From: Escherichia coli
GTDB taxonomy: Bacteria; Pseudomonadota; Gammaproteobacteria; Enterobacterales; Enterobacteriaceae
Assembly: GCF_965641715.1 (NCBI RefSeq)
Contig: NZ_OZ282453.1
Reading direction: 5' to 3' (one strand)
Length of the DNA stretch: 64,000 nt
A program made the translations under genes and the position numbers. The notes under the pieces are model-generated. The model searched no databases, was not told where the DNA came from, and worked only from the letters and a program-made list of their open reading frames with translations. This document shows positions 8,208 through 24,128 of the stretch, piece by piece. Position 1 is the first letter of the stretch, and each line of letters starts with the position of its first letter.

Positions 8208-9919
8208 TGAGCGAAAAACATCCAGGGCCTTTAGTGGTCGAAGGAAAACTGACAGACGCCGAGCGCATGAAGCTTGAAAGCAACTACCTGCGCGGCACCA
8301 TTGCGGAAGATTTAAACGACGGTCTGACCGGCGGCTTTAAGGGCGACAACTTCCTGCTGATCCGCTTCCACGGCATGTATCAGCAGGATGACCGCGACAT
8401 CCGCGCCGAACGTGCTGAACAGAAGCTGGAGCCGCGCCATGCGATGCTGTTGCGCTGCCGTCTGCCGGGTGGCGTGATCACCACCAAACAGTGGCAGGCG
8501 ATAGACAAATTTGCCGGTGAAAACACCATCTATGGCAGCATTCGCCTGACCAACCGCCAGACGTTTCAGTTCCACGGCATTCTGAAAAAGAACGTCAAAC
8601 CGGTGCACCAGATGCTGCACTCAGTCGGTCTTGATGCGCTGGCGACCGCTAACGACATGAACCGTAACGTACTCTGCACCTCGAACCCTTACGAGTCGCA
8701 GCTGCACGCAGAAGCGTACGAGTGGGCGAAGAAAATCTCTGAACATCTGCTGCCTCGTACCCGCGCGTATGCGGAGATCTGGCTCGATCAGGAAAAAGTC
8801 GCCACCACCGATGAAGAACCGATCCTCGGTCAGACTTATTTGCCGCGTAAATTCAAAACCACGGTAGTGATCCCGCCACAGAACGATATCGATCTGCACG
8901 CCAACGACATGAACTTCGTGGCGATCGCCGAAAACGGCAAGCTGGTGGGCTTTAACCTGTTGGTGGGCGGTGGGCTTTCCATCGAACACGGCAACAAGAA
9001 AACCTACGCCCGCACGGCGAGCGAGTTTGGCTATCTGCCGCTGGAGCATACGCTGGCGGTGGCGGAAGCCGTCGTGACAACTCAGCGTGACTGGGGTAAC
9101 CGAACCGATCGTAAAAATGCCAAAACCAAATACACGCTGGAGCGCGTGGGGGTTGAGACGTTTAAAGCGGAAGTGGAGCGTCGCGCGGGGATCAAATTCG
9201 AGCCGATTCGCCCGTATGAGTTTACCGGACGCGGAGATCGTATTGGCTGGGTTAAGGGCATTGATGATAACTGGCACCTGACGCTGTTTATCGAAAATGG
9301 TCGCATCCTTGATTATCCGGGGCGTCCGCTGAAAACCGGCCTGCTGGAGATCGCGAAGATCCACAAAGGTGATTTCCGCATTACGGCGAACCAGAATCTG
9401 ATCATCGCCGGTGTGCCGGAAAGCGAGAAAGCGAAGATCGAGAAGATCGCCAAAGAGAGCGGGTTAATGAATGCCGTCACGCCGCAGCGTGAAAACTCAA
9501 TGGCCTGCGTCTCGTTCCCGACTTGCCCGCTGGCGATGGCGGAAGCGGAGCGTTTCCTGCCGTCTTTTATCGACAACATCGATAATTTAATGGCGAAACA
9601 TGGTGTCAGCGATGAGCATATCGTGATGCGTGTAACAGGCTGCCCGAACGGTTGTGGTCGCGCGATGCTGGCGGAAGTGGGCCTGGTGGGTAAAGCGCCG
9701 GGTCGCTACAACCTGCATCTTGGCGGCAACCGTATTGGGACACGTATCCCACGGATGTATAAAGAAAACATCACCGAGCCGGAAATCCTGGCGTCGCTTG
9801 ATGAACTGATAGGGCGCTGGGCGAAAGAGCGCGAAGCGGGTGAAGGCTTCGGCGACTTTACGGTGCGTGCGGGCATCATTCGCCCGGTGCTCGATCCGGC
9901 GCGCGATTTGTGGGATTAA
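8207..9919 (+). CDS. cysI: Sulfite reductase [NADPH] hemoprotein beta subunit (570 aa)
   Basis: 570 aa ORF, N-terminus [15 protein letters not shown]; C-terminal CPNGC siroheme/4Fe-4S motif. Confidence 0.97.
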
Positions 9920-9924
9920 CCATC

Positions 9925-9975
9925 AGCCCGGTCTTGTAGGCCTGATAAGACGTGTGAGCGTCGCATCAGGCAAGG
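9925..9975. repeat. REP element between cysI and cysH
   Basis: tgtaggcctgataagacgtgtgagcgtcgcatcaggc, near-identical to the REP copy at 3420..3460. Confidence 0.6.
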
Positions 9976-9992
9976 CAAACAGTGAGGAATCT

Positions 9993-10727
9993 ATGTCCAA
10001 ACTCGATCTAAACGCCCTGAACGAACTGCCGAAGGTGGATCGCATTCTGGCGCTGGCGGAAACTAACGCCCAACTGGAAAAACTGGATGCTGAAGGCCGC
10101 GTAGCCTGGGCGCTGGATAATCTGCCCGGTGAATATGTGCTTTCTTCCAGCTTCGGCATTCAGGCGGCGGTGAGCCTGCATCTGGTGAATCAGATTCGCC
10201 CGGATATTACAGTGATCCTCACCGATACCGGTTACTTGTTCCCGGAAACCTACCGCTTTATTGACGAGTTAACGGACAAACTGAAGCTCAACCTGAAAGT
10301 GTACCGTGCTACCGAAAGCGCAGCCTGGCAGGAAGCACGCTACGGAAAACTGTGGGAACAGGGCGTTGAAGGCATTGAAAAGTACAATGACATCAACAAA
10401 GTCGAACCGATGAACCGGGCGCTGAAAGAACTTAACGCGCAAACGTGGTTTGCTGGCCTGCGCCGCGAACAATCCGGCAGCCGCGCCAATTTACCGGTGC
10501 TGGCAATTCAGCGTGGCGTATTTAAAGTGCTGCCGATTATCGACTGGGATAACCGAACGATATATCAGTATCTGCAAAAGCATGGCCTGAAATATCACCC
10601 ATTATGGGACGAAGGATATTTATCGGTGGGCGATACCCATACAACCCGTAAATGGGAACCCGGCATGGCGGAAGAAGAAACGCGTTTCTTTGGCTTAAAA
10701 AGGGAATGTGGGTTACACGAAGGGTAA
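9993..10727 (+). CDS. cysH: Phosphoadenosine phosphosulfate (PAPS) reductase (244 aa)
   Basis: ORF 9840..10727 runs through the REP; true start ATG at 9993 after AGTGAGGAA RBS gives [21 protein letters not shown]; C-terminal ECGLH motif. Confidence 0.95.
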
Positions 10728-10744
10728 ATATTGCCGGATAAATT

Positions 10745-10784
10745 AAACGCCTCTGTCAGAAATGATGGGGGCGTTTTTATTTTG
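10745..10784 (+). terminator. Candidate rho-independent terminator after cysH
   Basis: aaacgcctc...ggggcgtt inverted repeat followed by tttatttt. Confidence 0.4.
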
Positions 10785-11085
10785 CGAGCAGTATTCCTGA
10801 TTTTAAACGTGAACGCCGCTGGAAGAATTATCAGGTATAGAATGGCGTCGGGTGCTTGAGGCTGTCTGGCGTTAAGCATTCGCGAGGTTCCAGATGGACA
10901 AAAGCCCCAGGCGATATTTCTATCAACCTGAGGCCAGCGTTCGAACCTAAGCAATTCGGATGTTAGTCTCTTCTTTGCAGGGAGGCAAGACATGTGTATA
11001 TCACTGTAATTCGATATTTATGAGCAGCATCGAAAAATAGCCCGCTGATATCATCGATAATACTAAAAAAACAGGGAGGCTATTA

Positions 11086-13752
11086 ATGGAACCTTTTAAA
11101 TATATATGCCATTACTGGGGAAAATCCTCAAAAAGCCTGACGAAAGGAAATGATATTCATCTGTTAATTTATCATTGCCTTGATGTTGCTGCTGTTGCAG
11201 ATTGCTGGTGGGATCAATCAGTCGTACTGCAAAATACTTTTTGCCGAAATGAAATGCTATCAAAACAGAGGGTGAAGGCCTGGCTGTTATTTTTCATTGC
11301 TCTTCATGATATTGGAAAGTTTGATATACGATTCCAATATAAATCAGCAGAAAGTTGGCTGAAATTAAATCCTGCAACGCCATCACTTAATGGTCCATCA
11401 ACACAAATGTGCCGTAAATTTAATCATGGTGCAGCCGGTCTGTATTGGTTTAACCAGGATTCACTTTCAGAGCAATCTCCCGGGGATTTTTTCAGTTTTT
11501 TTGATGCCGCTCCTCATCCTTATGAGTCCTGGTTTCCATGGGTAGAGGCCGTTACAGGACATCATGGTTTTATATTACATTCCCAGGATCAAGATAAGTC
11601 GCGTTGGGAAATGCCAGCTTCTCTGGCATCTTATGCTGCGCAAGATAAACAGGCTCGTGAGGAGTGGATATCTGTACTCGAAGCATTATTTTTAACGCCA
11701 GCCGGGTTATCTATAAACGATATACCACCTGATTGTTCATCACTGTTAGCAGGTTTTTGCTCGCTTGCTGACTGGTTAGGTTCCTGGACCACAACGGATA
11801 CCTTTCTTTTCAAAGAAGATGCACCTTCAGGAATACAAGCGCTAAGAACATATTTTCAGGATAGACAGCAGGATGCGTGTCGGGTACTGGCGCTGAGTGG
11901 CCTTGTATCAAATAAGCGTCGTTATGACGGTGTACATGCCTTACTGGACAATGGCTATCAACCAAGACAATTACAGGTGTTGGTCGATGCTCTTCCTACA
12001 GCTCCCGGGCTGACGGTGATTGAGGCACCTACGGGATCAGGTAAAACCGAAACAGCGCTGGCCTATGCCTGGAAACTTATTGACCAACAACTTGCGGAGA
12101 GTGTTATTTTTGCCCTCCCTACACAAGCTACTGCAAATGCAATGCTCAGCAGAATGGAAGCGAACGCGAGCCGTTTATTTACCTCCCCAAATCTTATTCT
12201 TGCTCATGGTAATTCACGTTTTAACCACCTTTTTCAATCAATAAAATCACGCGCATTTACTGAGCAGGGGCAAGAAGAAGCGTGGGTTCAGTGTTGTCAG
12301 TGGTTGTCACAAAGCAATAAGAAAGTGTTTCTTGGGCAAATCGGCGTTTGCACTATTGATCAGGTGTTGATATCGGTATTGCCAGTTAAACACCGCTTTA
12401 TCCGTGGTTTGGGAATTGGTCGAAGTGTTTTAATTGTTGATGAAGTTCATGCTTACGACACCTATATGAACGGCTTGCTGGAGGCAGTGCTCAAGGCTCA
12501 GGCTGATGTGGGAGGGAGTGTTATTCTTCTTTCCGCAACCCTACCAATGAAACAAAAACAGAAACTTCTGGATACTTATGGTCTGCATACAGATCCAGTG
12601 GAAAATAACTCCGCATATCCACTTATTAACTGGCGAGGTGTGAATGGTGCGCAACGTTTTGATCTGCCAGCTCATCCAGAACAACTCCCGCCCCGCTTTT
12701 CGATTCAGCCAGAACCTATTTATTTAGCTGACATGTTACCTGACCTTACGATGTTAGAGCGAATGATCGCAGCGGCAAACGCGGGTGCACAAGTCTGCCT
12801 CATTTGCAATTTGGTTGACGTTGCACAACTATGCTTCCAACGGCTAAAGGAACTAAATGACACGCAAGTAGATATAGATTTGTTTCATGCGCGCTTTACG
12901 CTGAACGATCGTCGTGAAAAAGAGAATCGTGTCATTAGCAATTTCGGAAAAAATGGGGAGCGAAATGTTGGACGAATACTTGTCGCCACCCAGGTCGTGG
13001 AACAATCACTCGATGTAGATTTTGATTGGTTAATTACCCAGCATTGTCCCGCTGATTTGCTTTTCCAACGATTAGGCCGTTTACATCGCCATCATCGTAA
13101 ATATCGTCCCGCCGGTTTTGAGATTCCTCTGGCAACCGTTTTGCTGCCTGATGGCGAAGGTTACGGACGACATGAGCATATTTATAGCAACGTTAGAGTC
13201 ATGTGGCGGACGCAGCAACATATTGAGGAACTTAATGGAGCATCCTTATTTTTCCCTGATGCCTACCGGCAATGGCTGGATAGCATTTACGATGATGCTG
13301 AAATGGATGAGCCAGAATGGGTCATCAAAGGCATGGATAAGTTTGAAAGCGCTGAGTGTGAAAAGAGGTTCAAGGCTCGCAAGGTTCTGCAGTGGGCTGA
13401 AGAATATAGTTTGCAGGATAACGATGAAACCATTCTTGCGGTAACGAGGGATGGGGAAATGAGCCTGCCATTATTGCCTTATGTACAAACGTCTTCAGGT
13501 AAACAACTGCTCGATGGCCAGGTCTACGAGGACCTAAGTCATGAACAGCAGTATGAGGCTTTAGCACTTAATCGCGTCAATGTGCCATTTACCTGGAAAC
13601 GTAGTTTTTCTGAAGTAGTCGATGAAGATGGGTTACTTTGGCTGGAAGGAAGGCAGAATCAGGATGGATGGATCTGGCAGGGTAACAGTATTGTTATTAC
13701 CTACACTCGGGATGAAGGGATGACCAGAGTCATCCCTGCAAATCCCAAATAA
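11086..13752 (+). CDS. cas3: Cas3 nuclease/helicase, type I-E (888 aa)
   Basis: 888 aa; N-terminal HD domain (LLIYHCLDVAAV...HDIGKF), helicase Walker A GSGKTE and DEVH box; RBS AGGGAGG before ATG at 11086. Confidence 0.97.
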   Translation: MEPFKYICHYWGKSSKSLTKGNDIHLLIYHCLDVAAVADCWWDQSVVLQNTFCRNEMLSKQRVKAWLLFFIALHDIGKFDIRFQYKSAESWLKLNPATPSLNGPSTQMCRKFNHGAAGLYWFNQDSLSEQSPGDFFSFFDAAPHPYESWFPWVEAVTGHHGFILHSQDQDKSRWEMPASLASYAAQDKQAREEWISVLEALFLTPAGLSINDIPPDCSSLLAGFCSLADWLGSWTTTDTFLFKEDAPSGIQALRTYFQDRQQDACRVLALSGLVSNKRRYDGVHALLDNGYQPRQLQVLVDALPTAPGLTVIEAPTGSGKTETALAYAWKLIDQQLAESVIFALPTQATANAMLSRMEANASRLFTSPNLILAHGNSRFNHLFQSIKSRAFTEQGQEEAWVQCCQWLSQSNKKVFLGQIGVCTIDQVLISVLPVKHRFIRGLGIGRSVLIVDEVHAYDTYMNGLLEAVLKAQADVGGSVILLSATLPMKQKQKLLDTYGLHTDPVENNSAYPLINWRGVNGAQRFDLPAHPEQLPPRFSIQPEPIYLADMLPDLTMLERMIAAANAGAQVCLICNLVDVAQLCFQRLKELNDTQVDIDLFHARFTLNDRREKENRVISNFGKNGERNVGRILVATQVVEQSLDVDFDWLITQHCPADLLFQRLGRLHRHHRKYRPAGFEIPLATVLLPDGEGYGRHEHIYSNVRVMWRTQQHIEELNGASLFFPDAYRQWLDSIYDDAEMDEPEWVIKGMDKFESAECEKRFKARKVLQWAEEYSLQDNDETILAVTRDGEMSLPLLPYVQTSSGKQLLDGQVYEDLSHEQQYEALALNRVNVPFTWKRSFSEVVDEDGLLWLEGRQNQDGWIWQGNSIVITYTRDEGMTRVIPANPK

Positions 13753-14166
13753 CTTCGGGAATGATTGGTATCAATGACGATAACAAGACCAATAACGGTT
13801 TATCCCTACTTAAGTAGGGAAGGTGCACAATGTACATCTTCTTTTAATTTCCCGGTATGAGATTTTATATTCGCAGTATGAATATTTTATGTAATAAAAT
13901 TTATGGTAATTATTATAACTAAAAGTTTCTTTGATAATAAAACGAATAACTTGCAGATTTGAAATGCATGCATTATTGTCTTTAAACAATTCAACACATC
14001 TTAATATATGTATAGGTTAATTGTATTAAACCAATGAATATATTTTTGCAGTGAATGTGATTATTGAATTAATTACGCCGTATTTTTTCTTTGTTTTTAC
14101 CGATAACGGAAGTGTGCCGACGTATAGAAATGCAGGAGAAATGTCGGAGCATATGAAGGAGAACAA
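13753..14166 (+). promoter_or_regulatory. AT-rich cas3-casA intergenic region; expected site of the casA operon promoter
   Basis: 414 bp strongly AT-rich non-coding stretch directly upstream of casA; in K-12 this region holds the H-NS-silenced, LeuO-activated Pcas promoter (established knowledge, exact elements not mapped here). Confidence 0.45.
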
Positions 14167-15675
14167 ATGAATTTGCTTATTGATAACTGGATCCCTGTAC
14201 GCCCGCGAAACGGGGGGAAAGTCCAAATCATAAATCTGCAATCGCTATACTGCAGTAGAGATCAGTGGCGATTAAGTTTGCCCCGTGACGATATGGAACT
14301 GGCCGCTTTAGCACTGCTGGTTTGCATTGGGCAAATTATCGACCCGGCAAAAGATGACGTTGAATTTCGACATCGCATAATGAATCCGTTCACTGAAGAT
14401 GAGTTTCAACAACTCATCGCGCCGTGGATAGATATGTTCTATCTTAATCACGCAGAACATCCCTTTATGCAGACCAAAGGTGTCAAAGCAAATGATGTGA
14501 CTCCAATGGAAAAACTGTTGGCAGGGGTAAGCGGCGCGACGAATTGTGCTTTTGTCAATCAACCGGGTCAGGGTGAAGCATTATGTGGTGGATGCACTGC
14601 GATTGCGTTATTCAACCAGGCGAATCAGGCACCTGGTTTTGGTGGTGGCTTTAAAAGTGGTTTACGTGGAGGAACACCTATAACCACCTTCGTACGTGGG
14701 ATCGATCTTCGCTCGACGGTGTTACTCAATGTCCTCACAATACCTCGTCTTCAAAAACAATTTCCCAATGAATCACATACGGAAAACCAACCTACCTGGG
14801 TTAAGCCTGTCAAACCCAATGAATCTGTGCCAGCTTCGTCAATTGGCTTTGTCCGCGGCTTATTCTGGCAACCAGCGCATATTGAATTATGCGACCCCAT
14901 TGGGATTGGAAAATGTTCTTGCTGTGGGCAGGAAAGCAATTTGCGTTATACCGGTTTTCTTAAGGAAAAATTTACCTTTACAGTTAATGGGCTATGGCCC
15001 CATCCGCATTCCCCTTGTCTGGTAACAGTCAAGAAAGGGGAGGTTGAGGAAAAATTTCTTGCTTTCACCACCTCCGCACCATCATGGACACAAATCAGCC
15101 GAGTTGTGGTAGATAAGATTATTCAAAATGAAAATGGAAATCGCGTGGCGGCGGTTGTGAATCAATTCAGAAATATTGCGCCGCAAAGTCCTCTTGAATT
15201 GATTATGGGGGGATATCGTAATAATCAAGCATCTATTCTTGAACGGCGTCATGATGTGCTGATGTTTAATCAGGGGTGGCAACAATACGGCAATGTGATA
15301 AACGAAATAGTGACTGTTGGTTTGGGATATAAAACAGCCTTACGCAAGGCGTTATATACCTTTGCAGAAGGGTTTAAAAATAAAGACTTCAAAGGGGCCG
15401 GAGTCTCTGTTCATGAGACTGCAGAAAGGCATTTCTATCGACAGAGTGAATTATTAATTCCCGATGTTCTGGCGAATGTTAATTTTTCCCAGGCTGATGA
15501 GGTCATAGCTGATTTACGAGACAAACTTCATCAATTGTGTGAAATGCTATTTAATCAATCTGTAGCTCCCTATGCACATCATCCTAAATTAATAAGCACA
15601 TTAGCGCTTGCCCGCGCCACGCTATACAAACATTTACGGGAGTTAAAACCGCAAGGAGGGCCATCAAATGGCTGA
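14167..15675 (+). CDS. casA: Cascade large subunit Cse1/CasA (502 aa)
   Basis: 502 aa, N-terminus MNLLIDNWIPVRPRNGG; RBS AAGGAG; first gene of Cascade operon. Confidence 0.95.
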   Translation: MNLLIDNWIPVRPRNGGKVQIINLQSLYCSRDQWRLSLPRDDMELAALALLVCIGQIIDPAKDDVEFRHRIMNPFTEDEFQQLIAPWIDMFYLNHAEHPFMQTKGVKANDVTPMEKLLAGVSGATNCAFVNQPGQGEALCGGCTAIALFNQANQAPGFGGGFKSGLRGGTPITTFVRGIDLRSTVLLNVLTIPRLQKQFPNESHTENQPTWVKPVKPNESVPASSIGFVRGLFWQPAHIELCDPIGIGKCSCCGQESNLRYTGFLKEKFTFTVNGLWPHPHSPCLVTVKKGEVEEKFLAFTTSAPSWTQISRVVVDKIIQNENGNRVAAVVNQFRNIAPQSPLELIMGGYRNNQASILERRHDVLMFNQGWQQYGNVINEIVTVGLGYKTALRKALYTFAEGFKNKDFKGAGVSVHETAERHFYRQSELLIPDVLANVNFSQADEVIADLRDKLHQLCEMLFNQSVAPYAHHPKLISTLALARATLYKHLRELKPQGGPSNG

Positions 15676-16150
15676 TGAAATTGATGCAATGGCTTTATAT
15701 CGAGCCTGGCAACAACTGGATAATGGAGCATGTGCGCAAATTAGACGTGTTTCAGAACCTGATGAATTACGCGATATCCCTGCGTTTTATAGGCTGGTGC
15801 AACCTTTTGGTTGGGAGAACCCACGTCACCAGCAGGCTCTTTTGCGCATGGTGTTTTGCCTGAGCGCAGGAAAGAATGTCATCCGACATCAGGACAAAAA
15901 ACCGGAGCAAACAACAGGTATCTCGTTGGGAAGAGCTTTAGCCAATAGTGGAAGAATTAACGAGCGCCGTATCTTTCAATTAATTCGGGCTGACAGAACA
16001 GCCGATATGGTCCAGTTACGTCGATTACTTACTCACGCCGAACCCGTACTTGACTGGCCATTAATGGCCAGGATGTTGACCTGGTGGGGAAAGCGCGAAC
16101 GCCAGCAACTTCTGGAAGATTTTGTATTGACCACAAACAAAAATGCGTAA
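15668..16150 (+). CDS. casB: Cascade small subunit Cse2/CasB (160 aa)
   Basis: 160 aa, N-terminus MADEIDAMALYRAWQQLDNGA; start overlaps casA stop. Confidence 0.95.
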   Translation: MADEIDAMALYRAWQQLDNGACAQIRRVSEPDELRDIPAFYRLVQPFGWENPRHQQALLRMVFCLSAGKNVIRHQDKKPEQTTGISLGRALANSGRINERRIFQLIRADRTADMVQLRRLLTHAEPVLDWPLMARMLTWWGKRERQQLLEDFVLTTNKNA

Positions 16151-16162
16151 GGAAACCTTTCT

Positions 16163-17254
16163 ATGTCTAACTTTATCAATATTCATGTTCTGATCTCTCA
16201 CAGCCCTTCATGTCTGAACCGCGACGATATGAACATGCAGAAAGACGCTATTTTCGGCGGGAAAAGACGAGTAAGAATTTCAAGTCAAAGCCTTAAACGT
16301 GCGATGCGTAAAAGTGATTATTACGCACAAAATATTGGTGAATCCAGTCTCAGAACAATTCATCTTGCACAATTACGTGATGTTCTTCGGCAAAAACTTG
16401 GTGAACGTTTTGACCAAAAAATCATCGATAAGACATTAGCGCTGCTCTCCGGTAAATTAGTTGATGAAGCCGAAAAGATTTCTGCCGATGCGGTTACTCC
16501 CTGGGTTGTGGGAGAAATAGCCTGGTTCTGTGAGCAGGTTGCAAAAGCAGAGGCTGATAATCTGGATGATAAAAAGCTGCTCAAAGTTCTTAAGGAAGAT
16601 ATTGCCGCCATACGTGTGAATTTACAGCAGGGTGTTGATATTGCGCTTAGTGGAAGAATGGCAACCAGCGGCATGATGAGTGAGTTGGGAAAAGTTGATG
16701 GTGCAATGTCCATTGCGCATGCGATCACTACTCATCAGGTTGATTCTGATATTGACTGGTTCACCGCTGTAGATGATTTACAGGAACAAGGTTCTGCACA
16801 TCTGGGAACTCAGGAATTTTCATCGGGTGTTTTTTATCGTTATGCCAACATTAACCTCGCTCAACTTCAGGAAAATTTAGGTGGTGCCTCCAGGGAGCAG
16901 GCTCTGGAAATTGCAACCCATGTTGTTCATATGCTGGCAACAGAGGTCCCTGGAGCAAAACAGCGTACTTATGCCGCTTTTAACCCTGCGGATATGGTAA
17001 TGGTTAATTTCTCCGATATGCCACTTTCTATGGCAAATGCTTTTGAAAAAGCGGTTAAAGCGAAAGATGGCTTTTTGCAACCGTCTATACAGGCGTTTAA
17101 TCAATATTGGGATCGCGTTGCCAATGGATATGGTCTGAACGGAGCTGCTGCGCAATTCAGCTTATCTGATGTAGACCCAATTACTGCTCAAGTTAAACAA
17201 ATGCCTACTTTAGAACAGTTAAAATCCTGGGTTCGTAATAATGGCGAGGCGTGA
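16163..17254 (+). CDS. casC: Cascade backbone subunit Cas7e/CasC (363 aa)
   Basis: 363 aa, N-terminus [22 protein letters not shown]. Confidence 0.95.
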
Positions 17255-17256
17255 AC

Positions 17257-17931
17257 ATGAGATCTTATTTGATCTTGCGGCTTGCTGGGCCAATGCAAGC
17301 CTGGGGGCAGCCGACCTTTGAAGGAACGCGACCTACCGGAAGATTTCCGACCCGAAGCGGGTTATTAGGGCTACTCGGGGCTTGTCTTGGGATCCAACGT
17401 GATGATACTTCTTCATTACAGGCGTTATCAGAGAGTGTGCAATTTGCAGTGCGCTGCGATGAACTCATTCTTGACGATCGTCGTGTGTCTGTAACGGGGT
17501 TGCGTGATTACCATACAGTCCTTGGAGCGCGAGAAGATTACCGTGGTTTGAAAAGTCATGAAACGATTCAAACATGGCGCGAATATTTATGTGATGCCTC
17601 CTTTACCGTCGCTCTCTGGTTAACACCCCATGCAACGATGGTTATCTCAGAACTTGAAAAAGCAGTATTAAAGCCTCGGTATACACCCTACCTGGGGCGG
17701 AGAAGTTGCCCACTAACACACCCGCTTTTTTTGGGGACATGTCAGGCATCGGATCCTCAGAAGGCGCTATTAAATTATGAGCCCGTTGGCGGCGATATAT
17801 ATAGTGAGGAATCAGTTACAGGGCATCATTTAAAATTTACGGCGCGCGACGAACCGATGATCACCTTACCTCGACAATTTGCTTCCCGAGAATGGTATGT
17901 GATTAAAGGAGGTATGGATGTATCTCAGTAA
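17257..17931 (+). CDS. casD: Cascade subunit Cas5e/CasD (224 aa)
   Basis: ATG at 17257 just after casC stop; N-terminus MRSYLILRLAGPMQAWGQ. Confidence 0.93.
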   Translation: MRSYLILRLAGPMQAWGQPTFEGTRPTGRFPTRSGLLGLLGACLGIQRDDTSSLQALSESVQFAVRCDELILDDRRVSVTGLRDYHTVLGAREDYRGLKSHETIQTWREYLCDASFTVALWLTPHATMVISELEKAVLKPRYTPYLGRRSCPLTHPLFLGTCQASDPQKALLNYEPVGGDIYSEESVTGHHLKFTARDEPMITLPRQFASREWYVIKGGMDVSQ

Positions 17932-18517
17932 AGTCATCATTGCCAGGGCCTGGAGCAGGGATCTTTACCAACTTCACCAGGGATTATGGCATTTATTTCC
18001 AAACAGACCGGATGCTGCTCGTGATTTTCTTTTTCATGTTGAGAAGCGAAACACACCAGAAGGCTGTCATGTTTTATTGCAGTCAGCGCAAATGCCTGTT
18101 TCAACTGCCGTTGCGACAGTCATTAAAACTAAACAGGTTGAATTTCAACTTCAGGTTGGTGTTCCACTCTATTTTCGGCTTCGGGCAAATCCGATCAAAA
18201 CTATTCTCGACAATCAAAAGCGCCTGGACAGTAAAGGGAATATTAAACGCTGTCGGGTTCCGTTAATAAAAGAAGCAGAACAAATCGCGTGGTTGCAACG
18301 TAAATTGGGCAATGCGGCGCGCGTTGAAGATGTGCATCCCATATCGGAACGGCCACAGTATTTTTCTGGGGAAGGTAAAAATGGAAAAATCCAAACGGTT
18401 TGCTTTGAAGGTGTGCTCACCATTAACGATGCGCCAGCGTTAATAGATCTTTTACAGCAAGGTATTGGGCCAGCCAAATCGATGGGATGTGGTTTGCTAT
18501 CTTTGGCTCCACTATGA
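17918..18517 (+). CDS. casE: CRISPR RNA endoribonuclease Cas6e/CasE (199 aa)
   Basis: 199 aa, N-terminus MYLSKVIIARAWSRDLYQLHQGLWHLFPNRPDAARDFLFHVE; overlaps casD end. Confidence 0.95.
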   Translation: MYLSKVIIARAWSRDLYQLHQGLWHLFPNRPDAARDFLFHVEKRNTPEGCHVLLQSAQMPVSTAVATVIKTKQVEFQLQVGVPLYFRLRANPIKTILDNQKRLDSKGNIKRCRVPLIKEAEQIAWLQRKLGNAARVEDVHPISERPQYFSGEGKNGKIQTVCFEGVLTINDAPALIDLLQQGIGPAKSMGCGLLSLAPL

Positions 18518-18532
18518 TTGAGGTGTAATAAA

Positions 18533-19736
<1,204 letters not shown>

Positions 19737-19841
19737 AAACAAGGAATTAGCTGATCTTTAATAATAAGGAAATGTTACATCAAGGTTGGTGGGTTGTTTT
19801 TATGGGAAAAAATGCTTTAAGAACAAATGTATACTTTTAGA
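19737..19841 (+). promoter_or_regulatory. CRISPR leader (AT-rich; array promoter and integration signals expected)
   Basis: 105 bp AT-rich non-coding stretch between cas2 stop and first repeat; repeat strand orientation matches crRNA sense on + strand. Confidence 0.7.
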
Positions 19842-20481
19842 GAGTTCCCCGCGCCAGCGGGGATAAACCGTGTCCGAATTACTACACCGCCGAACAAAAC
19901 GCGAGTTCCCCGCGCCAGCGGGGATAAACCATGATCGCCGCCATGATTACTTGCCTTTTTTGTGAGTTCCCCGCGCCAGCGGGGATAAACCGGTCAGCAC
20001 CGCGTGCTCTGCCTGCAGGCTGTCGAGTTCCCCGCGCCAGCGGGGATAAACCGTCTATATCGGTGCATATATCCCCGACGAAAAAGAGTTCCCCGCGCCA
20101 GCGGGGATAAACCGTATTCATATAAATCCTTATTTTAGATACAGCGGAGTTCCCCGCGCCAGCGGGGATAAACCGCCAGCTTCATAGATCTGGCTCACGT
20201 AGAGCGCGAGTTCCCCGCGCCAGCGGGGATAAACCAGCGGCGCATAACTGATAAACAATAAATGCCGCGAGTTCCCCGCGCCAGCGGGGATAAACCGGGC
20301 CATCACGGTTTTATTCAGGTTACTGCAGACGAGTTCCCCGCGCCAGCGGGGATAAACCGCTGCGCGATCCAGCGCTCGACTTTGATCGTGAGAGTTCCCC
20401 GCGCCAGCGGGGATAAACCGGGCGCACTGGATGCGATGATGGATATCACTTAGAATTCCCCGCCCCTGCGGTAGAACACCC
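19842..20481 (+). CRISPR. Type I-E CRISPR array: 10 full 29-bp repeats, 10 spacers (nine of 32 bp, one of 33 bp), plus one degenerate terminal repeat
   Basis: Repeat GAGTTCCCCGCGCCAGCGGGGATAAACCG at 19842, 19903, 19964, 20025, 20086, 20147, 20208, 20269, 20331, 20392 (period 61, once 62); repeats 2 and 7 end in A rather than G; degenerate repeat GAATTCCCCGCCCCTGCGGTAGAACACCC at 20453..20481. Confidence 0.97.
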
Positions 20482-20501
20482 AGCTCCCATTTTCCAACCC
20501 A

Positions 20502-21539
20502 TCAAGACGCCTTCGCCAACTCCTTCACCAGCGGTAGCATTATCCGCATAACGTCACGGCAGCGACGTTCTATTCTTCCAGGAAGTGCTTTATCAATATG
20601 TTGCTGATTATCCAGTCTTACGTCATGCCAGCTATTTCCCGCAGGGAATGCGGCTGTTTTTGCGCGTTGCTGATAACCATCTTTATTCCCAAGATTCCAG
20701 TTTGTCGCTTCCACCGAAAGTACAGCAATGCCCGCTTTGTCGAATATTTCTGCGTCATTACAACATCCAGTGCCTTTCGGATAATTTTTATTCAAACCCG
20801 GATTGGTCGTTGCGGCAATTCCATGACTACGCGCAATTGCCAGCGCCCTGTCGCGCGTTAATTTCCTTACTGCTTCAGGGGTTTTTACACCGCTGTTGAA
20901 ATACAATTTATCGCCAACAATTAAGTTATCGAGATTAATCACCAGCAGCGTATTTTTCTTTTCGGTGTCACTCATCCGCTTGAGTAAATTCTCAGCGCCT
21001 AATTTCCCTTCCTCTTCTCCACTGGTCGCCACAAATCGAATACCATACTCGGTAGGCGTATTTTTCAGGCGTTCTGCCAGTTCCAGCATGACACCTAAAC
21101 CTGCGGCGTTATCATCCATTCCTTGTAACGTCAGCCCGCCGAGATTGGCATCGGCGTCAGCATCGCTCAGCGGGGCGTAAGTATCCAGATGCGCCATAAT
21201 GATGATCTGCTGCGGCGCTTTGCCTTCATGAGCGGCAATCACCGTACTTCCCGTCACGTTATGCCAGCTCTTACGATTATCGCGGGCGGTATAAATATAC
21301 CGACTATTAAATGTCCGAATATCACTGCGATAACCCATTTGCTGAAACTGTTGGCGAATATAATCGGCAGATAACATTTCTGCAGGAGTTCCGGTCATGC
21401 GTCCCGGAAAGAAAGTAGCAATATGTCGTGCCTGAGTATTAGCAAAATCGCCAGGTTTAGGTGACGAGGCGTGTACGGGGAGAATAAAGCATACGCCGAG
21501 CGCCAGGGCAGCGGTACGGTGGCGCAATGCGGAAAACAT
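20502..21539 (-). CDS. iap: Alkaline phosphatase isozyme conversion aminopeptidase (345 aa)
   Basis: 345 aa with N-terminal signal peptide MFSALRHRTAALALGVCFILPVHA; M28-peptidase-like. Confidence 0.9.
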   Translation of the reverse strand: MFSALRHRTAALALGVCFILPVHASSPKPGDFANTQARHIATFFPGRMTGTPAEMLSADYIRQQFQQMGYRSDIRTFNSRYIYTARDNRKSWHNVTGSTVIAAHEGKAPQQIIIMAHLDTYAPLSDADADANLGGLTLQGMDDNAAGLGVMLELAERLKNTPTEYGIRFVATSGEEEGKLGAENLLKRMSDTEKKNTLLVINLDNLIVGDKLYFNSGVKTPEAVRKLTRDRALAIARSHGIAATTNPGLNKNYPKGTGCCNDAEIFDKAGIAVLSVEATNWNLGNKDGYQQRAKTAAFPAGNSWHDVRLDNQQHIDKALPGRIERRCRDVMRIMLPLVKELAKAS

Positions 21540-21790
21540 AGTGAGTCCTTAAATACCATGCAAATTTTTTTACCGCCATAGTATGAAACTGCCGCTGCGC
21601 TAAAACAATTTCAAATCTTCCTAAACGCCCGAAATCCGGTGCCTTAAGCACTTTTTGATATTAGCTTTGCCAAATCGTTATTCCGTTAAGGAACTACTCA
21701 TTCTAATTGGTAATTTCATTCGTTCTCTTACGCTCCCTATAGTCGAAACATCTGATGGCAAGAAAATAGCGGTATTGCAAAGGAACGGTT

Positions 21791-22699
21791 ATGGATCAAA
21801 AACGACTTACTCACCTGCGGCAACTGGAGGCGGAAAGCATCCACATTATTCGCGAGGTGGCGGCAGAATTCTCAAATCCGGTGATGCTCTACTCTATCGG
21901 TAAAGATTCCAGCGTCATGCTGCATCTGGCGCGCAAGGCGTTTTATCCAGGTACGCTACCTTTCCCGTTGCTGCATGTCGATACCGGCTGGAAATTCCGC
22001 GAGATGTATGAGTTCCGCGATCGTACGGCGAAAGCCTACGGCTGCGAGCTGCTGGTGCATAAAAACCCGGAAGGCGTGGCGATGGGGATTAATCCATTCG
22101 TGCACGGCAGCGCGAAACATACCGATATTATGAAAACTGAAGGCCTGAAACAGGCACTGAACAAATACGGTTTTGATGCCGCCTTCGGTGGTGCGCGCCG
22201 TGACGAAGAGAAATCCCGTGCTAAAGAGCGAATCTACTCTTTCCGTGACCGCTTCCATCGCTGGGATCCGAAAAATCAGCGCCCGGAGCTGTGGCACAAC
22301 TACAACGGGCAAATTAACAAAGGCGAAAGCATCCGCGTCTTCCCGCTCTCTAACTGGACCGAGCAGGATATCTGGCAATACATCTGGCTGGAAAATATCG
22401 ACATTGTGCCGCTGTATCTCGCTGCGGAACGTCCGGTTCTGGAACGCGACGGTATGTTGATGATGATTGATGACAACCGTATCGACCTGCAACCGGGCGA
22501 AGTGATCAAAAAACGGATGGTGCGTTTCCGTACGCTGGGCTGCTGGCCGCTGACCGGTGCGGTGGAGTCAAATGCACAAACACTGCCGGAGATCATCGAA
22601 GAGATGCTGGTTTCCACCACCAGTGAACGTCAGGGCCGCGTGATTGACCGCGACCAGGCGGGGTCTATGGAGCTGAAAAAACGTCAGGGGTATTTTTAA
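21791..22699 (+). CDS. cysD: Sulfate adenylyltransferase subunit 2 (302 aa)
   Basis: 302 aa, N-terminus [27 protein letters not shown]; PAPS-reductase-like fold. Confidence 0.97.
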
Positions 22700-22700
22700 G

Positions 22701-24128
22701 ATGAACACCGCACTTGCACAACAAATCGCCAATGAAGGCGGCGTCGAAGCCTGGATGATTGCGCAACAACATAAAAGCCTGCTGCGTTTTCTGACCTGTG
22801 GTAGCGTCGATGACGGCAAAAGTACCCTGATTGGTCGCCTGCTGCACGATACCCGCCAAATCTACGAAGATCAGCTCTCATCGCTGCATAACGACAGTAA
22901 GCGTCACGGCACCCAGGGCGAAAAGCTGGATCTGGCACTGCTAGTGGACGGCCTGCAAGCTGAGCGCGAACAGGGCATCACCATTGACGTGGCTTACCGT
23001 TATTTCTCTACCGAGAAGCGTAAATTTATTATCGCCGACACCCCAGGGCACGAGCAGTACACCCGCAATATGGCGACTGGCGCATCGACATGCGAACTAG
23101 CGATCTTACTGATCGATGCCCGTAAAGGCGTACTCGATCAAACCCGTCGTCACAGTTTTATCTCCACACTGTTGGGGATCAAACATCTGGTCGTGGCGAT
23201 CAACAAAATGGATCTGGTGGATTACAGTGAAGAGACGTTCACCCGTATTCGTGAAGATTATCTGACCTTTGCCGGGCAGCTGCCGGGTAATCTGGATATC
23301 CGCTTTGTGCCGCTCTCCGCACTGGAAGGTGACAACGTGGCTTCGCAAAGTGAAAGTATGCCGTGGTACAGCGGTCCGACACTGCTCGAAGTGCTGGAAA
23401 CCGTGGAGATCCAGCGAGTGGTGGATGCCCAGCCAATGCGCTTCCCGGTGCAGTACGTTAACCGCCCAAATCTCGATTTTCGTGGCTACGCCGGAACGCT
23501 GGCATCCGGTCGCGTGGAAGTCGGGCAACGTGTAAAAGTGCTGCCCTCTGGTGTGGAATCAAACGTCGCGCGGATCGTGACTTTTGATGGTGATCGCGAA
23601 GAAGCCTTTGCCGGAGAAGCGATCACCCTGGTGCTGACGGATGAGATCGACATCAGCCGTGGCGATCTGCTGCTGGCGGCAGACGAAGCGTTACCAGCTG
23701 TGCAGAGCGCGTCGGTGGATGTGGTATGGATGGCGGAACAGCCGCTTTCCCCGGGCCAGAGTTATGACATCAAAATTGCCGGTAAGAAGACGCGTGCTCG
23801 TGTTGATGGCATTCGTTATCAGGTTGATATTAATAACCTTACCCAACGCGAAGTTGAAAACCTGCCGCTGAACGGCATCGGCCTGGTGGATCTCACTTTT
23901 GACGAGCCACTGGTGTTAGATCGTTATCAGCAAAACCCGGTTACCGGTGGGCTGATTTTTATCGATCGCCTGAGCAATGTGACCGTAGGTGCCGGTATGG
24001 TGCAGGAGCCAGTTAGCCAGGCAACTGCTGCGCCATCTGAATTTAGTGCATTCGAACTGGAATTGAATGCCCTGGTTCGCCGCCACTTTCCACACTGGGG
24101 CGCGCGCGATTTGCTGGGGGATAAATAA
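22701..24128 (+). CDS. cysN: Sulfate adenylyltransferase subunit 1, GTPase (475 aa)
   Basis: 475 aa; GTP-binding motifs GSVDDGKST and DTPGH; begins 1 bp after cysD stop. Confidence 0.97.

Follow-up and report, generated by a model that had tools for sequence, protein, structure and literature searches.

Positions 11086-20481 of the window, by which we mean the whole 64-kb stretch of DNA analyzed, almost certainly hold a standard, apparently intact type I-E CRISPR-Cas locus of the E. coli K-12 type, with a strain-specific array. The copy described here is an allele, at the level of the strain, of the type I-E system that has been studied most thoroughly. Since this is a textbook system, its description adds little beyond annotation. 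With its ten spacers, the array constitutes a new CRISPR allele that could be used for strain typing.

The cas genes and their relatives

All eight cas ORFs scored above the NCBIfam type I-E equivalog or exception cut-offs in a profile search (Table 1). These include the type I-E signature proteins Cse1/CasA (Cas8e) and Cse2/CasB (Cas11) as well as the subtype-specific adaptation module, Cas1e and Cas2e (TIGR03638 and TIGR01873). Both the cas3_HD and cas3_core domains were matched in Cas3, corresponding to an HD nuclease fused to an SF2 helicase. From the coordinates, the gene order is the canonical cas3-cse1-cse2-cas7-cas5-cas6e-cas1-cas2, with the program-made ORF starts of casD, cas1 and cas2 lying upstream of the K-12-collinear ATGs at 17257, 18533 and 19452. 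The junctions after casA measure, in order, -8, +12, +2, -14, +15 and +1 bp. The tight or overlapping junctions noted earlier are therefore found from casA through cas2 but not between cas3 and casA, which are separated by a long AT-rich gap.

The locus lies between cysH, which ends at 10727, and iap (20502-21539, minus strand), in the context cysH-cas...cas2-array-iap-cysDNC, with flanking sequence 99.4% identical to E. coli. This position, together with the presence of the terminal anchor spacer, identifies the array as CRISPR-I (2.1). As predicted, the cas region is AT-rich relative to the cys flanks (44.9% GC, compared with 55.4% on the cysJIH side and 51.4% on the iap-cysDNC side). The only Rfam matches, sok and a sub-threshold ctRNA, lie upstream of cas3, leaving the cas genes and the array without any.

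Table 1. Features of the type I-E locus (positions are those of the window; bit scores are from the profile search).
Feature	Coordinates	Strand	Description
cas3	11086..13752	+	888 aa; HD nuclease-SF2 helicase fusion, target-degrading enzyme; NF007248, 1608.8 bits (cut-off 569)
cas3-casA intergenic region	13753..14166	+	414 bp, 30% GC (0.302); equivalent to the K-12 casA (Pcas) promoter region with H-NS, LeuO and CRP sites
casA/cse1 (cas8e)	14167..15675	+	502 aa; Cascade large subunit, PAM recognition; NF007247, 903.7 bits (cut-off 576)
casB/cse2 (cas11)	15668..16150	+	160 aa; Cascade small subunit; TIGR02548, 56.7 bits (cut-off 28.5)
casC/cas7e	16163..17254	+	363 aa; Cascade backbone; TIGR01869, 427 bits
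casD/cas5e	17257..17931	+	224 aa; TIGR01868, 288.6 bits
casE/cas6e	17918..18517	+	199 aa; pre-crRNA endoribonuclease; TIGR01907, 269.5 bits
cas1e	18533..19450	+	305 aa; integrase; TIGR03638, 375.9 bits
cas2e	19452..19736	+	94 aa; TIGR01873, 140.3 bits
CRISPR leader	19737..19841	+	105 bp, 28.6% GC; from cas2 stop to first repeat
CRISPR array (CRISPR-I / 2.1)	19842..20481	+	ten 29-nt repeats, degenerate terminal repeat, ten spacers; adjoins iap as in K-12
Spacer 1	19871..19902	+	newest; 31/32 to IMG/VR contig L006, 3699-3730
Spacer 2	19932..19963	+	preceded by repeat ending in A
Spacer 4	20054..20085	+	31/32 in RecE-like exonuclease VIII gene; PAM AAG; mismatch at position 23
Spacer 7	20237..20268	+	preceded by repeat ending in A; match in prophage tail sheath gene
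Spacer 10	20421..20452	+	oldest; ancestral terminal, species-wide anchor spacer

The system of K-12 MG1655 (cas3/ygcB to cas2/ygbF, b2761-b2754) has the same gene order, protein lengths, cysH-iap position and 29-nt repeat, with 95.3-99.7% nucleotide identity per gene and 95-100% protein identity. By gene, nucleotide identity is 95.3% for cas3 (31 amino acid substitutions, no indels), 97.7% for casA (8 substitutions), 99.4% for casB, 99.5% for casC, 99.7% for casD (protein identical), 98.3% for casE, 97.5% for cas1 and 95.8% for cas2 (3 substitutions). Each gene equals its MG1655 counterpart in length, and neither gaps nor internal stops occur. The original prediction that all eight genes are intact was borne out, in that they are full-length, collinear with K-12 and free of frameshifts and stops. 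Across the cas genes, dN/dS (pN/pS) relative to K-12 is 0.11, indicating purifying selection since the split from the K-12 allele.

Two further E. coli systems were informative. Among 5,426 complete E. coli genomes, 1,106 of which cover at least 80% of the locus, strain 33F4 (NZ_CM147849.1) gave the best match over the full length. The stretch from cas3 to casE differs from that of 33F4 by 9 nt in total, and the terminal spacer and terminal degenerate repeat are the same, whereas cas1 and cas2 differ by 17 and 12 nt and all other spacers are different. Strain 2017-02-2CC (NZ_AP027764.1) carries a second E. coli type I-E sequence variant, with the same subtype, iap-adjacent site and repeat core. 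In this variant the cas genes differ in length and junctions from those of the window, the leader is different, and the repeats start with GTG instead of GAG.

A complete-looking locus could still be non-functional if missense changes had inactivated one or more Cas proteins, and the 53 amino acid differences from K-12 over the eight proteins, with Cas3 contributing the 31 listed above, offer candidates. We consider such inactivation very improbable. No known catalytic residue is altered, with H74, D75, K320 and DEVH452-455 kept in Cas3, H20 in CasE, and E141, H208 and D221 in Cas1. Moreover, Cas3 is only 3 residues from the 33F4 protein and CasA to CasE are identical to those of 33F4, pointing to a circulating allele, and dN/dS for cas3 alone is 0.10.

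Promoter region, leader and repeats

The cas3-casA region is identical to K-12 at 409 of 414 positions. Since a simple sigma-70 consensus scan found no + strand site in the casA upstream region or the leader, and was uninformative, the casA promoter was assigned by identity to K-12, where it is under H-NS, LeuO and CRP control (PMC4782391). The leader, which has the 105-bp length and AT-rich composition originally described, differs from that of K-12 at two positions, both in its upstream part, with no difference in the 60 nt nearest the repeats. In view of how little the casA promoter region and the leader depart from K-12, H-NS most likely silences the operon in laboratory conditions, and LeuO would be able to de-repress it, as in K-12.

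A repeat search between 19835 and 20481 returned 11 in-register copies at a spacing of 61 (once 62), and exact extraction confirmed the expected ten repeats, degenerate terminal repeat and ten spacers, nine of them 32 nt long and spacer 8 of 33 nt. The repeats start at 19842, 19903, 19964, 20025, 20086, 20147, 20208, 20269, 20331 and 20392. Eight of the ten are identical to GAGTTCCCCGCGCCAGCGGGGATAAACCG, while in those at 19903 and 20208 the last base is A and not G, a difference from K-12; the other 28 positions are invariant in all ten. The terminal repeat (20453-20481), which also differs slightly from that of K-12, agrees with the consensus at 20 of its 29 positions. The fold of the repeat has a 7-bp stem (-15.1 kcal/mol, z = -3.6), and no other copy of the repeat core was found on either strand of the 64-kb window. 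The array is oriented as in K-12. Because the leader adjoins cas2 and ends in the same 60 nt as in K-12, the given strand is read as the crRNA sense, in agreement with the earlier assignment of the crRNA sense to the strand of the cas operon.

Given the near-identity to the K-12 model system, and specifically the 95-100% protein identity, crRNA processing, Cascade assembly, interference and adaptation would be expected to follow the K-12 scheme. The array transcript would start from the leader, and CasE would cleave each repeat after the 7-bp hairpin to give 61-nt crRNAs in which the spacer lies between an 8-nt 5´ handle (ATAAACCG) and a 21-nt 3´ hairpin. CasA, CasB, CasC, CasD and CasE would assemble with the crRNA into Cascade, which is predicted to bind DNA protospacers with a 5´ AAG-type PAM and to bring in Cas3 for degradation. 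Cas1-Cas2 would place new 33-bp prespacers at the leader end, with the PAM-proximal base of the prespacer becoming the last base of the repeat.

Spacer origins and the repeats ending in A

The array has ten spacers compared with thirteen in K-12. Spacers 1-9 are absent from the 5,426 complete E. coli genomes and all differ from the K-12 spacers, and are private to this strain. The original guess that the spacers are strain-specific was therefore correct except for spacer 10, which matches the K-12 terminal spacer at 31/32 positions. Spacer 10 also matches 3,744 (about 3,700) of the 5,426 genomes and is identical among the matches listed. Local alignment gave a likeness between spacer 7 and K-12 spacer 9 (score 13) and between spacer 6 and K-12 spacer 6 (score 11), both of which are attributable to chance (the highest score among 200 shuffles was 13 and the 95th percentile was 12); the first was rejected because its score lies within the shuffles and the alignment needs an indel inside coding sequence.

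Three of the private spacers (1, 4 and 7) nearly match temperate-phage genes, pointing to exposure to phages through methyltransferase, RecE-like exonuclease and tail sheath genes. The spacer 1 match sits in an ORF for a 635-aa phage C5 plus N6 DNA methyltransferase and is preceded by AAA. In Cascade, every sixth crRNA base is flipped out and unpaired, and the sole mismatch of spacer 1, at position 18, is at a position that does not pair. The spacer 4 match is in a lambdoid prophage adjoining ttcA in strains STEC384 and STEC379. Spacer 7 matches the tail sheath gene (DUF2586, phrog_907) of a P2-family prophage at 30/32 positions in strain N1420, where the upstream bases are CTG, and at 29/32 in strain 40EC, where the upstream context is tcAA/G (the slash marks the start of the match; upstream bases CAA). 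The bases upstream of the spacer 1 and spacer 7 matches thus are not the optimal AAG seen for spacer 4, and a CAA PAM may allow neither interference nor priming (bioRxiv 10.1101/2020.02.10.942821). All of these matches are imperfect homologues of the donor elements.

No perfect match was found for spacers 1-9 in searches of phages, plasmids, E. coli genomes and IMG/VR, and spacers 2, 3, 5, 6, 8 and 9 had no target in any of these. For the ten spacers, the sole match from blastn against INPHARED phages (E up to 10) was at 80%, in a mislabelled Salmonella contig, and is attributable to chance; the PLSDB plasmids yielded spacer 10, in chromosomes wrongly labelled as plasmids, and otherwise only matches of 21-31 nt with E near 3. 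Exact-pattern scans of IMG/VR for the six targetless spacers found nothing; these scans, which used spacer nt 1-26 with N at 6, 12, 18 and 24 and tolerated no other mismatch, are of low sensitivity, such that the real matches of spacers 4 and 7 would escape them. A metagenome scan for the spacer 2 core gave no match. When a genome collection was scanned for spacer 3, a single match emerged, in a Methylorubrum populi MAG, and was rejected as chance (26/32 with all four wildcard positions mismatched, upstream TCC, GC-rich genome). The best self-target within the 64-kb window was at chance level (21/32), and a full-text literature search for six spacer sequences found none of the six in any paper.

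The two repeats ending in A precede spacers 2 and 7. The last repeat nucleotide is PAM-derived (PMC3338789), and slipping by -1 and -2 is known in type I-E acquisition (bioRxiv 10.1101/2020.02.10.942821). There is evidence for both spacers that they are products of slipped acquisition, which would explain both A-ending repeats. The protospacer of spacer 2 is also represented in the array of 2017-02-2CC, by a spacer that starts 2 nt later, follows a repeat ending in G and agrees at 29 of the 30 shared nt. The shifted register and the one base difference indicate that the two acquisitions were independent. Read from this sister spacer, the target of spacer 2 probably is A-T-G-ATCGCC..., and the repeat-terminal A would be the A of that ATG. 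For spacer 7, the A at position -1 in 40EC reads as a -1 slip from AAG. The "near-perfect" repeats of the original prediction do include two imperfect copies, but these are better described as having a protospacer-derived last base (G to A) than as mutated.

We think it unlikely that both A-ending repeats are ordinary point mutations unrelated to the acquisition of spacers 2 and 7. In keeping with simple mutation, the donor elements of the two spacers were not found, the N1420 prophage homologue has G at -1 and not A, and the sequence upstream of the spacer 2 target, ATG, is implied from the sister spacer alone. However, both variants fall exactly at the last repeat position, known to be protospacer-derived, with none elsewhere in the repeats; the 40EC protospacer has A at -1; and the 2-nt register shift relative to the sister spacer places an A there for spacer 2. 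If slipped acquisition is correct, the two repeats would provide an example from a wild array of a protospacer-copied last base and of the occasional integration of slipped prespacers.

Activity of the system

The type I-E system of this lineage may be naturally active and may have undergone adaptation in the wild in relatively recent times, as could be read from the sharing of only the terminal spacer with the 5,426 genomes, the 31/32 match of spacer 1 to an extant prophage gene, with its one mismatch at an unpaired position, and the two apparently slipped spacers. We regard this as improbable. If true, it would contradict the prevailing picture of a silent E. coli CRISPR-Cas and make the strain a natural model of active E. 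coli immunity.

Only a little short of an even chance is given to a passive relic, intact in sequence, that has carried out neither adaptation nor interference for a long time, and whose private spacers reflect an unsampled lineage or an array imported by recombination. Consistent with such a relic, no spacer has a perfect target, no target of any kind was found for six of the nine private ones, and one report calls the K-12 system transcriptionally silent (PMC12248084). In the flank, even the closest complete genomes reach only 99.4% identity, indicating that no close relative has been sampled. In addition, synonymous divergence from K-12 is mosaic (dS 0.17 for cas3, 0.01 for casB-casD and 0.15 for cas2), and this mosaic, together with the split relation to 33F4, in which cas3-casE are nearly identical and cas1-cas2 differ, indicates recombination at the locus. 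Against long disuse, extant prophage genes still agree at 31/32 positions with spacer 1, the newest, and with spacer 4, and the overall dN/dS and the kept catalytic residues show that the genes have been maintained under selection.

Gene content and integrity of the locus

An ORF list for 9000-23000, a repeat search and exact extraction of the repeats gave the gene series and the repeats listed in the table below. The cas genes average 44.9% GC, against 55.4% on the cysJIH side and 51.4% on the iap-cysDNC side. The ORF, repeat, leader and GC results show that the original prediction, which had described the gene series, ten repeats plus a degenerate one, a 105-bp leader and low GC content, was accurate down to the coordinates. 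All eight Cas proteins scored above the cut-offs that NCBIfam curates for the type I-E families, and the structural features by which type I-E membership is judged were all examined and all present. The neighboring genes cysH and iap, together with an iap-cysDNC flank that has 99.4% identity to E. coli chromosomes and is found in 5,425 of 5,426 complete genomes, assign the window to E. coli or a very close relative and place the cas genes and array at the classical CRISPR-I (2.1) locus.

Features of the locus and its flanks, with NCBIfam scores and comparison to K-12 MG1655
Feature	Coordinates	Strand	NCBIfam bits	nt identity to K-12	Length (aa)	aa substitutions
cysH (cas3-side neighbor)	ends 10727
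ctRNA_p42d Rfam match	10743-10785
sok antitoxin Rfam match	10850-11006	+
sokX by K-12 annotation	10894-10952	-
Co-directional ORF series	11086-19736	+
cas3		+	1608.8	95.3%	888	31
casA (Cse1)		+	903.7	97.7%	502	8
casB (Cse2)		+	56.7	99.4%	160	2
casC (Cas7e)		+	427.1	99.5%	363	3
casD (Cas5e)	start 17257	+	288.6	99.7%	224	0
casE (Cas6e)		+	269.5	98.3%	199	3
cas1 (Cas1e)	start 18533	+	375.9	97.5%	305	3
cas2 (Cas2e)	start 19452	+	140.3	95.8%	94	3
In-register repeat copies	19835-20481
Ten 29-nt repeats	19842-20420
Second repeat	19903
Spacer 2	19932-19963
Seventh repeat	20208
Spacer 7	20237-20268
Degenerate terminal repeat	20453-20481
iap (array-side neighbor)	20502-21539	-

Each gene of the K-12 MG1655 locus, used as the reference, was aligned to the window. 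All eight aligned end to end without gaps and, with K-12-collinear ATG starts, every protein was exactly as long as its K-12 counterpart and free of internal stops. Residues that we take to be catalytic in the K-12 proteins (Cas3 H74, D75, K320 and D452 in DEVH; CasE H20; Cas1 E141, H208 and D221) were kept. The pN/pS ratio relative to K-12 (Nei-Gojobori count) was 0.11 overall, 0.10 for cas3 and 0.05 for cas1, which points to purifying selection on the cas genes. Cryptic missense inactivation of the Cas proteins is very unlikely, being disfavored by the dN/dS value and by strain 33F4, whose CasA to CasE proteins are the same as here and whose Cas3 departs from that of the window at three residues.

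Among known systems that of K-12 is the closest, and among complete genomes that of 33F4, in which cas3 to casE lie 9 nt in total from the window, whereas the differences amount to 17 nt in cas1 and 12 nt in cas2, and the terminal spacer alone is in common. Values of dS relative to K-12 were strongly mosaic (cas3 0.17, casA 0.08, casB-casD ~0.01, casE 0.05, cas1 0.09, cas2 0.15); this pattern, along with the restriction of 33F4 near-identity to cas3-casE, suggests recombination breakpoints within the gene series, one near the casE/cas1 boundary. At least 80% of the locus was covered in only 1,106 of the 5,426 genomes, the others carrying a second E. coli I-E variant or lacking the genes.

The repeat search found one repeat in 11 in-register copies, spaced by 61 nt and once by 62. 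Eight of the ten extracted repeats have the exact sequence GAGTTCCCCGCGCCAGCGGGGATAAACCG, the second and seventh end in A, not G, and the degenerate terminal copy agrees with the consensus at 20 of 29 positions; no further copy of the repeat core was found in the rest of the 64-kb window. The ten spacers are 32 nt each, save spacer 8 (33 nt). The repeat RNA is predicted to fold into a 7-bp GC-rich hairpin (-15.1 kcal/mol; 0 of 200 shuffles folded as well). The leader, from the cas2 stop to the first repeat, has 28.6% GC over its 105 bp and differs from that of K-12 only in the cas2-proximal part, the 60 nt adjoining the first repeat being identical.

Spacer sharing and targets

Numbering the spacers from the leader side, we found that only the terminal one of the 13 spacers in the K-12 array matches the window, at 31 of 32 positions of spacer 10; the suspicion that the spacers are strain-specific was thus borne out for the set, spacer 10 being its only common member. 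With megablast, the ten concatenated spacers gave matches in 3,744 of the 5,426 complete E. coli genomes, never covering more than one spacer at a place, and spacer 10 was present in all 60 matches listed. Spacers 1-9 alone gave matches in only 11 complete E. coli genomes by sensitive blastn. From both outcomes, we conclude that spacers 1-9 are private to the strain within the 5,426-genome collection and that spacer 10 is a species-wide anchor. Nothing departs from the known system; the locus itself is known, and its spacer allele is new.

Three spacers have targets in prophages. Spacer 4 matches, at 31 of 32 positions (mismatch at position 23), the gene for a RecE-like exonuclease VIII (phrog_2489) in a lambdoid prophage integrated beside ttcA in strains STEC384 and STEC379, with AAG directly 5´ of the protospacer. 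Spacer 7 matches a P2-family prophage gene for the tail sheath (DUF2586, phrog_907) at 30 of 32 positions in strain N1420 and at 29 of 32 in eight further strains. Spacer 1 matches an IMG/VR prophage contig (L006, IMGVR_UViG_2529293142_000021) at 31 of 32 positions, the sole mismatch being at position 18, in a gene for a 635-aa fused C5-cytosine and N6-adenine DNA methyltransferase. A second stretch of the same gene (L006 3323-3359, 37 nt) recurs without mismatch in annotated CRISPR sequence of 70 complete E. coli genomes; the element has therefore been a CRISPR target in E. coli repeatedly, and this phage Dcm plus Dam methyltransferase gene has been sampled independently by different E. coli lineages. 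The nucleotide similarity of the contig to sequenced phages is almost nil.

The target of spacer 2 was not found, and a sister spacer is present in the array of E. coli 2017-02-2CC (L005). For spacers 3, 5, 6, 8 and 9, searches of phage, plasmid, E. coli genome and IMG/VR sequences gave no credible match; spacer 3 had a single match, in a Methylorubrum MAG, which appears fortuitous. No self-target was detected in the 64-kb window outside the array (best match 21 of 32).

Repeats ending in A

The last repeat base comes in with the new spacer as the third PAM base, and CCA repeats have been found paired with AAA or CGA PAMs (Swarts et al., PMC3338789). The repeats had been called perfect or near-perfect; two imperfect copies do exist, though both deviate only at this last base, and each precedes a spacer with independent evidence for A at protospacer position -1. 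For spacer 7, the prophage of strain 40EC reads ...ttttcAA followed directly by GCGGCGCAT..., with A at -1 and a canonical AAG one base rightward. In this context, spacer 7 would represent a "-1 slip", an event that gives an NAA PAM (bioRxiv 10.1101/2020.02.10.942821). For spacer 2, 2017-02-2CC has ...ACCG followed by ATCGCCGCC...TTGTTG, whereas the window has ...ACCA followed by TGATCGCCGCC...TTGT, and overlay of the two versions yields the target A-T-G-ATCGCC.... The 2017-02-2CC PAM would then be ATG, and spacer 2 of the window would have begun 2 nt earlier, bringing A into the repeat. Plain repeat mutation as the origin of the terminal A's is unlikely. Slipped acquisition is well supported as the probable source of both, and falls short of proven in view of the N1420 homologue of the spacer 7 target, which has G at -1.

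Strain 2017-02-2CC carries the other E. coli I-E cas variant, with repeats that start GTG and a leader different from that of the window. The sister spacers (L005 about 2500-2531 and spacer 2) derive from the same protospacer with a 2-nt offset and one base difference, which argues that the two cas variants acquired them independently, probably from related elements.

Expression, proposed mechanism and the cysH-cas3 region

Junctions from casA to cas2 measure -8, +12, +2, -14, +15 and +1 bp, in line with the expected tight or overlapping arrangement; this description does not extend to cas3 and casA, which lie 414 bp apart (30% GC). The gap is the same as in K-12 at 409 of 414 positions. In K-12, H-NS represses the cse1/casA promoter, LeuO relieves this repression, and CRP binds the promoter as well (PMC4782391). 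Given this gap and the K-12-like promoter region, cas3 is a unit separate from casABCDE12 rather than part of one tightly packed operon. A simple scan found no plus-strand sigma-70 consensus in the leader or the cas3-casA region, and promoters are therefore assigned by identity to K-12, not by motif.

The mechanism is expected to follow the K-12 model, as the proteins are 95-100% identical to those of K-12 and the repeat and leader-proximal sequence are the same. Array transcription would start from the leader, CasE would cut 3´ of each repeat hairpin, Cascade (CasA, CasB, CasC, CasD, CasE and crRNA) would form an R-loop at PAM-flanked protospacers, Cas3 would degrade the target, and Cas1-Cas2 would insert 33-bp prespacers at the leader-repeat junction. 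By analogy, the near-identical promoter region suggests that H-NS silences the locus; the K-12 system is described as transcriptionally silent in PMC12248084. It is quite unlikely that the I-E system of this E. coli lineage is naturally active. That the locus is a passive relic of an unsampled lineage, maintained without recent adaptation, fits all the evidence and has slightly less than an even chance, an estimate that concerns recent activity and scarcely implies a different identity.

The cysH-cas3 region is the same as in K-12 at 352 of 358 positions. Its ORFs of at least 20 aa include no Hok-like peptide, judged by eye. The ctRNA_p42d match just past cysH was sub-threshold (24.9 bits vs a gathering score of 50, E = 0.094), overlaps the apparent cysH terminator hairpin and is probably due to chance. 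The sok antitoxin match (RF01794, 102.6 bits, E = 7.6e-23) marks a hokX/sokX remnant; K-12 annotation puts sokX on the strand opposite to cas3, in disagreement with the plus-strand Rfam match.
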